Of a DNA stretch of 64,000 bases, positions 7,476-63,904 are shown piece after piece. The stretch covers positions 72,044,001 through 72,108,000 of the forward strand of contig NW_027266297.1 of assembly GCF_022045235.1 (NCBI RefSeq). The letters run 5' to 3'. A program made the translations under genes and the position numbers. The stretch's first letter is position 1; each line of letters starts with the position of its first letter. The notes beneath the pieces were generated by a model. It made no database searches. It was not told the DNA's origin and saw only the letters and a list, made by a program, of their open reading frames with translations. Source of the stretch: Haliotis cracherodii. Its lineage: Eukaryota.

Positions 7476-7755
7476 GTGAGTGAGTAATTTGGTTTTAAAG
7501 CCGCTTTTAACATTAGTCCAGTTATATCACGGCGTGTCACCTTAATGTCGGAGGAAAGCCCAAAGTGATTCAGGTCTCAGACGTTTACCACTTCGGTGAA
7601 ACAAACGAGCACGGGTATGGTGCTGACAAACCTAGAAACATAATCGGGGCGAACCGGGATTCGAACCCACAATCATAGGTTTCTGGCGTGCCGAAGGGAC
7701 GCAACTCTGCACAGCAAATCGCGGCGCCTTAGACGACTGGGCCGCCCGTGCCCCC
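7476..7755 (-). mobile_element. tRNA-derived SINE family C (V-domain-like) copy
   Basis: A/B boxes, GCTTTCCTCC V-like core, (CTCA)n tail; degenerate TSD tgtaa(t/c)ta(t/c)a. Confidence 0.9.
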
Positions 7756-19052: not shown

Positions 19053-19222
19053 GTGAGTGAGTGAGTGAGTATGGTTTTACGCCGCTTTTAGCAATATTCC
19101 AGCAATATCACTGCGGGGGACACCAGAAATGGGCTTCACGCATTGTACCCATGTCGGGATTCGAACCCGGGTCTTCGGCGTGATGAGCAAACGCTTTAAC
19201 CACTAGGCTACCCGACCGCCCC
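19053..19222 (-). mobile_element. tRNA-derived SINE family B copy
   Basis: A box TAGCCTAGTGG, B box GGTTCGAATCC, (CTCA)n tail, 11-bp TSD gcatggttggt. Confidence 0.93.
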
Positions 19223-20092
19223 GCATGGTTGGTTATCAAGTGTTATATCGATGCATATATGCGGTTGTTACGAACATCTCTGCATATCGCAGTATATTTC
19301 TAACAAGTCCACAATATGGCTGAAATATTGCCGATGTGACTATAAATCCTAACTCACTCACTCAATCTAACAAGTCATTACTCATTTGAATCCCGAAACT
19401 CTGCCAGGAATGCATCGATTGCTCGCACTCCCATGTTTTCGAAATTCCCCAGTTAAAACAGCATGCTAAAATACGCATAAACAATTTATTGAAAGAAAAA
19501 TAATCTTAATGAGTTAACGTTTAGTGGCGTTTTATGGCGAAGCCAATGTGCATAAGAACTAATTCTTGGCCGAGGAAGTGCTAAGTGATCTGTGTAGGAA
19601 TAATTCATTGTACGCCAACACTAATATGTTGCCTATTGTGTTTTGCCATAGTGGTCAATATTCACATAATGAGTCCATCAAACAAATCGTGGCCTTCTTA
19701 TCTAAAACGAACGTATGAATGGTTTCAGGGCAAAAACTTTTGTCTGTTGCTGTTAGAGCTCCCGCGAGGTGTTTTTCTTATTTTGAAAGATAATATGGCG
19801 TTGAATAGGTAATACGGTGGTGCTAGTGAACCGCGTTGTCGTCCTTCATAATATTATTGTGAACATATATGATCTAGATCCTAAGGCTATAAGGTAAACC
19901 ACAAACACATTCGAAGGTCATTCAACACTTTTCGGGATGAGTCACATAAATTTGGTAAGGATTGTTGCTGATGGATTGTTTGTACCCAGGCAGAGGGTTC
20001 AAGAGGACCTGGCAAGGAAACCACATATTGAACATTTGCCATGAGCATGTTACCTCGAGACATGACCTTCATCTTTCCAAGGACTATAGTCA

Positions 20093-20433
20093 TGAATACC
20101 ACAATGCCATTTAGACAATGTTGTATTTGTTACATTTGACCACTTTCTAAATGGCATTATGTATTCATAGCTTTCGGCCATGGGAGCAGTACCAATTTAC
20201 ACTTGTCAGAGGGGTACTCAAAGTACGTGATCTAGACTACCAGTTGTCGGACTTTCATTATTTGTGGAAGCCTCGGTGGCTGAGTGGGTTAGATCGCTGA
20301 CTTTGTGTGCTGGCGATTAGGTGCCTCACTCTGGCAAGTGTGTGTTCGAATCCCGGACGAGACTCAACCCCCAAAAAGTACGAGAATCTGTACTTCACTA
20401 AGAAAGTGTTATCCCAAGTATAACATTTGTTAA
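20093..20433 (+). mobile_element. Family D: tRNA-like, circularly permuted element with inverted 5' arm
   Basis: 10-bp TSD actatagtca; tRNA-like module 20270-20364 (A box TGGCTGAGTGG, B box GTTCGAATCC); inverted repeat 20092-20115 / 20146-20169. Confidence 0.75.
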
Positions 20434-21069
20434 ACTATAGTCACGACGTCATTGCCGGACATTCTGGAAAATAGATTGACCGAACAATATGTGATAAGTT
20501 TCATTTGAAGCTTTAGCGAACCAATCACAACGTAACGCAAGTCGTATATGGAAATAATGAGTACTGCATTAGTTAAATACACCCGCTAGTCTGTCTTAAA
20601 AGTATTTGACCGTTTTCTTGGGTAATCTGTGTTATTTCATCCAACTTCTCAATGGAAACACATAAATAAACCGCGCGATATTCACACTTTACTACAGAGG
20701 CATATAGAGAAACCATTCACAGATTACAGTTTCTGTATTATTTAAAAGTAATTACCTTGTAAAATTAGAGTGTATTTTTTTCGCAAAACGATAAAAAACG
20801 TGCACATTCCGTATTTCACTCAACGTGTAGAGACATGCCATTGATGACGTCATGCATTGCAATGACGTCCCGCAACGAGGTTACAATTCAAAGCCATCAT
20901 AGGATAAAGCGACATGTCGTAACACGGAATTAATTTCCTTTTTCTTCATCAATAACGGCATATCTTGACACTCGGTTTCACAGCTTCAGAAGTGCAAAAT
21001 ATGCACTTCCATTATGTCATTAGGACACCACACATACACGACAGATATAGGTGCACAGTGAGTGTTAAA

Positions 21070-62978: not shown

Positions 62979-63904
62979 GCAGACACTCTTGGGCATCACA
63001 ATTAACAGAATATACATCAATCTAGATTAACACATGATGATACAGGGGTTAGAACATTAAGACAGCTCATACACTATAATCCTGGAATGTGTTCCTATCA
63101 CCGCCTCATGGTTCCAGAGATGTGGCTTGTAAAGTGCAGAGGTATTTGGTTAGCGTATATTCGCACACGCACACAAGCTTCAGAAACGTTTTAAATATTG
63201 CGTTTATAGTAATAAGCCCCGGCCAACCAGACTCACGTCTGCACGCGGCTGTGAATCAGTTACCATTGATTGTTTGTTACGCTAGAGTCGTAATATTCCG
63301 GAAAATTGTAAATAATGGGTCCTTTTTGTCTTTGACCGTGCACCAGCTAACTGAATTATGGAAATGACAGACCTTCTTTTCGCCCTGGCATTTACCTTGA
63401 TGATGGAACAATTTCATGAAAAATGCGTGTCGCCGGCGGGATTCGAACCCGCGAAGTAGGCACCGAAGCCTGACGAATGTTGTCTTCTGCCTCGGCGACT
63501 TATAGTTTATCCGTTTTTGAACTGCGAAATATGTTTTATGCAGTAGGTTATATGTTACTGTATGCATTATACCTACGTGTGATTTGGTAACTTTTCATTT
63601 TACGAAACGAACAGATAAAAAAGAAATCACTATTATCTTGATCAGGGCTATGTTTGTTAACTACATGGGCAGGTAATATCTAAGTGATTGATAAATGTGC
63701 TAGAGTTGGTCCAAAATGAATGCTATACTTGCCCCGGGCCATGCATTTCGCAACCCGAGTCGGCAAAGTGCGAGATGTACGTGCGGAAGGCTTGCGGAAC
63801 ATTTTCACGTGCATCACGCACAAGTGTCCTCACAGCTGGGCAGAGAGTTCCTAAATATCTTCCACAAACCCATCAACAAAACAATGTTTCTCAATCATTT
63901 TAGA

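Follow-up and report, generated by a model that had tools for sequence, protein, structure and literature searches.

Positions 20083–20443 of the window, by which we mean the whole 64,000-nt stretch of DNA that was analysed, contain one copy of a 298-bp repeat that we refer to as family D, or D, herein. Unit positions are numbered so that u1 corresponds to window position 20168, which places the tRNA-like head at u96/102–196, the inner 3' end at u263 (20432) and the outer 3' end at u298 (20167). The features of the window copy are as follows.

20083–20092, no strand: left target-site duplication (TSD), 10 bp, an exact match to the right copy
20093–20115, minus strand: inverted arm beginning at the outer 3' end (u298), from sequence comparison and the reciprocal arm rule
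20116–20124, no strand: 9-nt filler at the inversion junction
20125–20432, plus strand: direct copy of one unit and 8 further nt, with the inner 3' end (u263) as its terminus
20133–20167, plus strand: 35-nt 'tail' separating the two 3' ends, inner and outer
20141–20153, plus strand: 3' arm of a terminal stem followed by AAATG, inside the tail; a motif common to Poseidon-type ends
20168–20187, plus strand: predicted hairpin with three G-U pairs, whose 5' arm read on the opposite strand is the GAAAGCUA of a proposed hammerhead
20199–20258, plus strand: anti-head arm (u32–91), predicted to pair with 20264–20341 in a long rod; contains the complement of 'CUGACAA'
20258–20263, plus strand: T-run, predicted Pol III terminator and unit junction; T4–T6 in the family, interrupted in the window copy (TTATTT)
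20264–20365, plus strand: tRNA-like head, with A box at 20277–20287, B box at 20343–20353 and a predicted transcription start at about 20264–20270
20375–20396, plus strand: hairpin without the catalytic core, its 8-nt family loop being the same as that of stem II among copies of one Poseidon-type hammerhead
20401–20408, plus strand: 5' arm of the terminal stem, 24–27 nt upstream of the inner 3' end
20434–20443, no strand: right TSD, 10 bp

The initial annotation had described a 341-bp insert within a 10-bp TSD, a short inverted arm, a terminally redundant monomer and a tRNA-like module in the middle of the unit, and each of these descriptions held. The TSD is exact at 20083–20092 and 20434–20443; the arm at 20093–20115 is the reverse complement of the outer 3' end except for one added base and a single mismatch; the direct part (20125–20432) comprises one 300-nt unit with 8 nt repeated; and ARAGORN called a tRNA-like structure at 20270–20365 that includes the A box (20277–20287) and the B box (20343–20353), the latter with one mismatch in this copy. 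The insert is also without a simple-repeat tail, as had been noted. The paired acceptor stem fared less well: about 5/7 positions pair by reading, but the Rfam tRNA model gave no match. Stretches of N in the window lie outside the insert.

A search of the 1.18-Gb genome, whose repeats suggest a gastropod mollusc, with the D insert returned 3,461 candidates, and among the 40 that were scored the best were 92–95% identical. A single 29-mer from D had at least 1,090 exact matches, versus none for the reversed pattern. Since the insert search favours long copies, the first 100 matches to the 29-mer in genome order were used instead; these represent 84 distinct loci on two contigs and sample only copies that retain the exact 29-mer. 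Copies of D are dispersed in the genome, and a search aimed at an older subfamily revealed none that was distinct. The window additionally holds two ordinary tRNA-headed SINE families (B boxes at 7668, 16950 and 32006, and at 19168, 32961 and 50675), one of which has a long A–B spacer and a B-box region in common with D, and, at 63450 (minus strand), another B-box-bearing tRNA-like sequence that is distinct from D and from both SINE families.

Insertion pattern and helper element

The right ends of D copies fell at two sites 35 nt apart in 76 of the 84 loci (47 inner, 29 outer and 8 other), within zones spanning u258–272 (inner) and u292–u8 (outer), with the left ends scattered. The same two ends appeared as piles of loose ends in unstranded contigs from sequencing runs of four organisms. 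An inverted 5' piece stood at the start of 50/84 loci; this piece began at a terminus in 39 of the 50, and in 34 of those 39 it was the terminus opposite to that of the direct arm. The remaining five testable loci comprised two inner/inner and three outer/other combinations, and outer/outer did not occur. TSDs of 9–20 bp, typically about 12 bp, flanked 33/84 loci, compared with 1/412 mismatched (shuffled) flank pairs, and were distributed as 27/50 among inverted loci and 6/34 among direct loci. In 32/84 loci the pieces were longer than one unit, forming pLTR-like, 5'-truncated partial tandems. We then compared arms within loci, pooling the 84 loci with a further set mapped earlier: subfamily state was equal in both arms in 68/72 (inverted) and 85/89 (tandem) site comparisons versus 64–65% between loci, and private variants were common to both arms 8–17 times more often than between loci. 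As the arms share both subfamily state and private variants, a single reaction on one source accounts for them.

Penelope-like elements (PLEs) are described as leaving a 30–40-bp tail along with partial tandem copies and inverted copies truncated at the 5' end (passages on insertion structure in PMC8557442), and this tail has been explained as the interval between two internal start sites for reverse transcription, with both target strands extended (in vitro sections of PMC11167929). The genomic traits of a non-autonomous PLE, namely partial tandems, inverted copies and a 35-nt tail at one end, are all present in D, and its end pattern is the Penelope 'tail' signature rather than that of a SINE. 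Given the scheme of two internal starts and two extended strands outlined in PMC11167929, the template for reverse transcription would be the plus strand. We consider it very likely that D is mobilised by a PLE, as judged from sequence. With equally high confidence, the two ends, which are opposite in inverted arms, would mark where a Penelope reverse transcriptase initiates internally on plus-strand RNA, with one start site for each nicked strand. The inverted arm of the window copy at 20093–20115 would record a second reverse-transcription event. The window copy is one such insertion and, with less than a full unit following its promoter, is probably not a source copy.

That D might instead be a conventional SINE dependent on a LINE, or a satellite with copies that underwent rearrangement once inserted, could be argued from its tRNA-like head with A and B boxes and from the B-box region that it has in common with another SINE of the genome. 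Against this stand the two fixed ends, the reciprocal inverted arms inside one TSD, the dispersal of the copies and the lack of head-anchored 5' ends. An ordinary SINE would begin at the head, end in simple repeats and be free of inversions; for D, only 7/147 5' ends lay at the head (u92–104), 50/84 loci were inverted, and inspection by eye of the flanks of the 84 loci revealed no recurring 3' tail, LINE-derived or simple-repeat. We therefore regard the SINE or satellite explanation as extremely improbable. The earlier proposal of a non-autonomous element carrying Pol III boxes and moved by a PLE rather than a LINE is upheld by the two ends, the reciprocal arms and the TSDs, with Pol III transcription itself a matter of prediction.

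Two kinds of PLE were considered as helpers. Five families were labelled Neptune-type from the cysteine linker, by its description in PMC8557442 and without a tree. All five were rejected, as none has D's ends; families 1 and 2 terminate in (TA)n. A 40-nt match between D and Neptune-type family 1 lies upstream of that family's hammerhead and not at its end, and one Neptune-type family showed weak similarity to D (21/1000 in the 3'UTR and 49/2000 at the end). Shuffle comparisons of Neptune-type ends with D gave 49, 360 and 1,797 of 2,000.

One weak GIY-YIG match led to at least three families that are without the cysteine linker (RVT_1, E = 5e-11), herein Pos1–3, which we take to be Poseidon-type. 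A fourth terminus of this type, Pos4, had ORF remnants in 3/25 loci. Pos1–3 end in a terminal stem, AGAAGTTG with CAACTTCT, followed directly by AAATG in Pos1 and Pos2; Pos4 has the 3' stem arm and AAATG in common with the other Poseidon-type ends. In D the corresponding stem pairs AGAAAGTG with CACTTTCT, again followed by AAATG, and differs from the Poseidon-type stem by two compensatory pairs. Ends fall 25–32 and 57–68 nt after the 5' stem arm in the Poseidon-type families and 24–27 and 59–62 nt after it in D. Poseidon-type loci with two ends were inner/outer in 6/8 and carried TSDs of 12–14 bp in 5/8, three values of 75 in this tally being self-matches.

The 3' part of D aligned with Pos2 (1/2000 shuffles), Pos3 (15/2000) and Pos4 (2/2000, mononucleotide shuffles) but not significantly with Pos1 (161/2000), and antisense controls of the alignment were flat. 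The loop of one D hairpin (u213–220) is identical to that of stem II among Pos2 hammerhead copies; D itself is missing the core, and this region may be a hammerhead vestige. D also lay inside Poseidon-type ends at 2/112 loci versus about 0.13 expected from 4,677 motif matches (a lower bound), an excess that is suggestive only. A search with the tail pattern found no autonomous element with a near-identical D tail; among the first 100 of 523 pattern matches, examined by eye, the tail occurred only in truncated or inverted D copies and in no other element. A pattern placing an intact hammerhead before the D stem gave 27 matches versus 16 for the control, representing Poseidon variants and noise. 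On these sequence comparisons, the helper of D is probably Poseidon-type, and such an enzyme would recognise the shared terminal stem together with AAATG, a step in which we have the same good, if not high, confidence.

Several observations on the PLEs themselves were made along the way. Three Poseidon-type families carry minimal hammerheads with a U3-A8 core (L269–L298 and L319–L338), with 4,677 exact matches to a motif that they have in common. Of 46 matches to Poseidon-type 3'UTRs, 22 stop short of the hammerhead, or about 20 once one mutated core and one double count are removed; these breaks, just upstream of the hammerhead, lead into apparent 5'-truncated LINE sequence (L280, L281, L285, L287, L288, L294–L296, L319, L320, L323, L326, L328–L330 and L335–L338), which suggests a LINE insertion hotspot in the Poseidon-type pLTR. 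Two Neptune-type copies, L061:2885–5242 (minus strand) and L078:2422–4599 (plus strand), have uninterrupted RT plus GIY-YIG frames of 785 and 725 aa, and the L061 copy has inverted pLTRs and a two-end tail in (TA)n. Stand-alone GIY-YIG frames of about 115–135 aa, unlike the PLE domains, were found at L170, L173, L183, L205 and L206, several of them clustered on contig C14.

Transcript, fold and template continuity

The initial annotation had noted a hammerhead-like string on the minus strand, with its predicted cut point at the left junction of the insert and poorly pairing stems I and II, and had considered that D might be a retrozyme-like unit. Both the string and the coincidence of the left junction with the supposed cut point were confirmed, but the motif is not a hammerhead. 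The junction corresponds to the outer 3' end of D on the plus strand. In the minus-strand core, CUGACAA, C3 stands with A8 and G8 occurs in 0/73 copies; the known alternative core is U3-A8 (as described in part of PMC4209133), and single changes at C3 or G8 abolish hammerhead activity (assays excerpted from PMC11167929). Stem II closes with 1 bp, and no stem I was found by eye. Both halves of the motif are the complements of plus-strand helices that contain G-U pairs, and no hammerhead core was found on the plus strand of D. Rfam scans of the window region and five loci gave no tRNA, hammerhead, twister or HDV match and only generic hairpins below gathering scores; a genome search with RF00163 had no match anywhere, the controls being likewise unmatched, and so carries no information.

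If D were a retrozyme cleaved on its minus strand by a hammerhead at the left junction, this would account for GAAAGCUA, which lies exactly at the outer end and resembles the palindromic minimal PLE hammerheads (from the portion of PMC4209133 on these motifs), and for the few small-RNA reads, which are of the minus strand only. With G8 missing in 73/73 copies, a C3/A8 combination that is neither known core form, a one-bp stem II, no visible stem I and motif halves explained by plus-strand pairing, we consider this reading highly implausible; in addition, the truncation polarity indicates the plus strand as template, and the genuine PLE hammerheads of this genome lie on the sense strand. The small-RNA reads came from three libraries of one related organism and numbered 44, all minus strand, with 29 from one start in one run; as reads of 50 nt, they are blind to a 298-nt RNA. 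The 29 reads (run X20) map to L010:1608–1633, where they share a single minus-strand start at the rod tip and are possibly piRNA against D.

The plus strand is predicted to be the more strongly folded, with a circular fold z of -7.7 versus -5.2 for the minus strand and a rod energy of -68.8 versus -41.3 kcal/mol. For a real genomic D unit the fold z was -7.68, matched by 0/100 shuffles. In the predicted rod, the arm at u32–91 pairs with the head at u96–173. A subfamily change from A43-U162 to G-C (27 versus 47 rows, with 5 intermediates) is compensatory, and a change from U36-A169 to U-G in 30 rows keeps a pairing that is valid on the plus strand only, although these changes mark one subfamily and so represent few independent events.

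The A and B boxes of D are 55 nt apart and match the type 2 consensus. The sole run of four or more T residues on the plus strand (u91–95) lies at the rod tip, directly upstream of the head; in shuffled sequences such a run occurred at the same place in 9% and there alone in 2.5%. Runs of T5–T6 are expected Pol III terminators. An RNA made by Pol III from about u96 to the next T-run is predicted to be exactly one unit with paired 5' and 3' ends. Modelled in this way, transcription would start right after one T-run, read a single unit and stop at the next, the 3' arm folding onto the head, and we consider such a Pol III unit RNA likely. The T-run varied in length at 43%, versus 36% for another homopolymer, so that its variation is no proof of a Pol III end.

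If copying ended where this RNA begins, 5' ends would peak at the head. This peak was not found: 7/147 5' ends lay there and 7/53 pieces stopped there, and 46 of the 53 pieces reaching u104 also passed u91, thereby crossing the unit junction. We determined the T-run length at 107 junctions from 137 loci, 11 repeated loci having been dropped, and found 54 T5, 34 T4, 9 T6 and 10 other. Junction length was the same in 16/21 within-locus pairs versus 43% between loci. Because pairs within a locus agree, the junction appears to be mostly templated, as it would be in a circle or multimer, and the template of reverse transcription is likely circular or multimeric.

Three routes across the junction can be envisaged. 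In the first, cDNAs run through it because the unit RNA has been closed into a circle without a ribozyme. We favour this route over the other two because the terminator, the predicted start and the rod tip coincide, and put it at slightly under even odds. In the second, D still depends on a Penelope enzyme, which copies linear multimers that arise by read-through of tandem copies, by Pol II from the flanks or by Pol III past T4, and no circle forms. Dimers and trimers of D exist, T4 is found at 34/107 junctions, a multi-copy mRNA has been proposed for an autonomous PLE (in the relevant part of PMC11167929), and junction identity within loci fits read-through equally well. On the other hand, 63/107 junctions are T5–T6, which should terminate Pol III, no array above three units was present among the mapped loci, and the coincidence of terminator, predicted start and rod tip is left unexplained; read-through is thus a real possibility, albeit one we doubt. 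In the third, the template is a linear unit RNA, and the reverse transcriptase, on reaching the 5' end in each pass, hops across to the 3' end paired with it. The predicted rod would keep both RNA ends together, and 5/21 within-locus junction pairs are of unequal length, but junctions are mostly a clean T4–6 followed by GTG and concordant within loci, and no strong pile of 5' ends exists at the head (7/53 stop). Jumping is unlikely in our judgement.

Family D among known systems

Taken together, D is a genuine Penelope passenger that is young, present in high copy number, equipped with a tRNA-type promoter and free of a ribozyme. Our main reading, to which we give a probability of about 0.7, is that D is a non-coding 298-bp retroelement copied by a Poseidon-type Penelope enzyme from a predicted Pol III transcript, the ends of which are paired and likely joined. 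A more general proposal, which we advance tentatively and at less than even odds, is that D represents a PLE-borne, SINE-like class in which the pLTR hammerhead has been replaced by a Pol III start and terminator: the unit RNA would pair its own ends, a host enzyme would ligate the circle without a ribozyme, and a Poseidon reverse transcriptase would copy round it from two internal starts. Full-text literature searches brought up no description of a hammerhead-free PLE passenger with a tRNA promoter, and Repbase, Dfam, subscription journals or supplements may hold D under another name.

In the usual view, SINEs are parasites of LINEs and PLE passengers are hammerhead retrozymes; D combines a SINE-type promoter with the insertion pattern of PLE passengers and has no ribozyme. 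Its size of 298 nt, lack of coding sequence, high copy number and two mapped start sites make D a substrate on which tandem and inverted copying by PLEs and the role of the hammerhead, topics raised in the sections cited from PMC8557442 and PMC11167929, can be tested. The small terminal stem common to D and four Poseidon-type families is a candidate for the minimal cis signal of Poseidon-type reverse transcriptases, and, if the circles are real, D would be a case of a Pol III RNA circularised independently of any ribozyme.

As far as the cited descriptions extend, the closest precedent for tandem units with an internal Pol III promoter is Sm-alpha/Sj-alpha of Schistosoma (PMC6765202, PMC2770079), which like D has a tRNA-related Pol III promoter in tandem units. 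There, the excerpts state, a unit is driven by its upstream neighbour, and a lone copy is unable to propagate. Unlike D, which has no hammerhead downstream of its promoter, Sm-alpha/Sj-alpha carries an active one on the transcribed strand; Penelope tails, inverted arms and a (predicted) unit-junction terminator are found only in D when set against these accounts.

Poseidon_Ac (PAc) of Anolis resembles D in its two internal start sites for reverse transcription, 30–40-nt tail, extension of both target strands and AT-rich targets, and its hammerhead cleavage was dispensable for insertion in vitro, according to the sections used from PMC11167929. PAc is autonomous and hammerhead-bearing, whereas D is a non-coding passenger. 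MRC1 and other Chlamys-dependent non-autonomous PLEs, as portrayed in the passages drawn from PMC8557442, form pLTR-like partial tandems and head-to-tail copies like those of D, have 3' similarity to autonomous families and belong to a clade in which canonical hammerheads are mostly absent. Unlike D, their description there includes no tRNA or Pol III promoter, and they represent another PLE clade and host.

The metazoan non-LTR retrozymes, in the extracts available from PMC7229834 and bioRxiv 10.64898/2026.07.22.740005, are similar to D in their non-coding units of about 300 nt, tandem copies, long TSDs and highly paired RNA, and a dependence on PLEs and an origin from pLTRs have been proposed for them. 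Set beside the range given for retrozymes (tandem units of 170–400 nt with TSDs of >4 bp), D has 298-nt units and TSDs of 9–20 bp, and its self-pairing is comparable by prediction (z of -7.7, with one compensatory pair). Retrozymes are defined in those same sources by a type I hammerhead, which D has on neither strand, and their circles are proven, whereas for D a circle is a proposal only. D has instead an internal tRNA-type promoter, and its T-run could define the monomer in place of a ribozyme. With tRNA-derived SINEs, D has internal A and B boxes in common, but not a 5' start at the head or a LINE-derived or simple-repeat tail. Failing a defining test of each class, D joins the promoter of a SINE to the size, fold and helper of a retrozyme.
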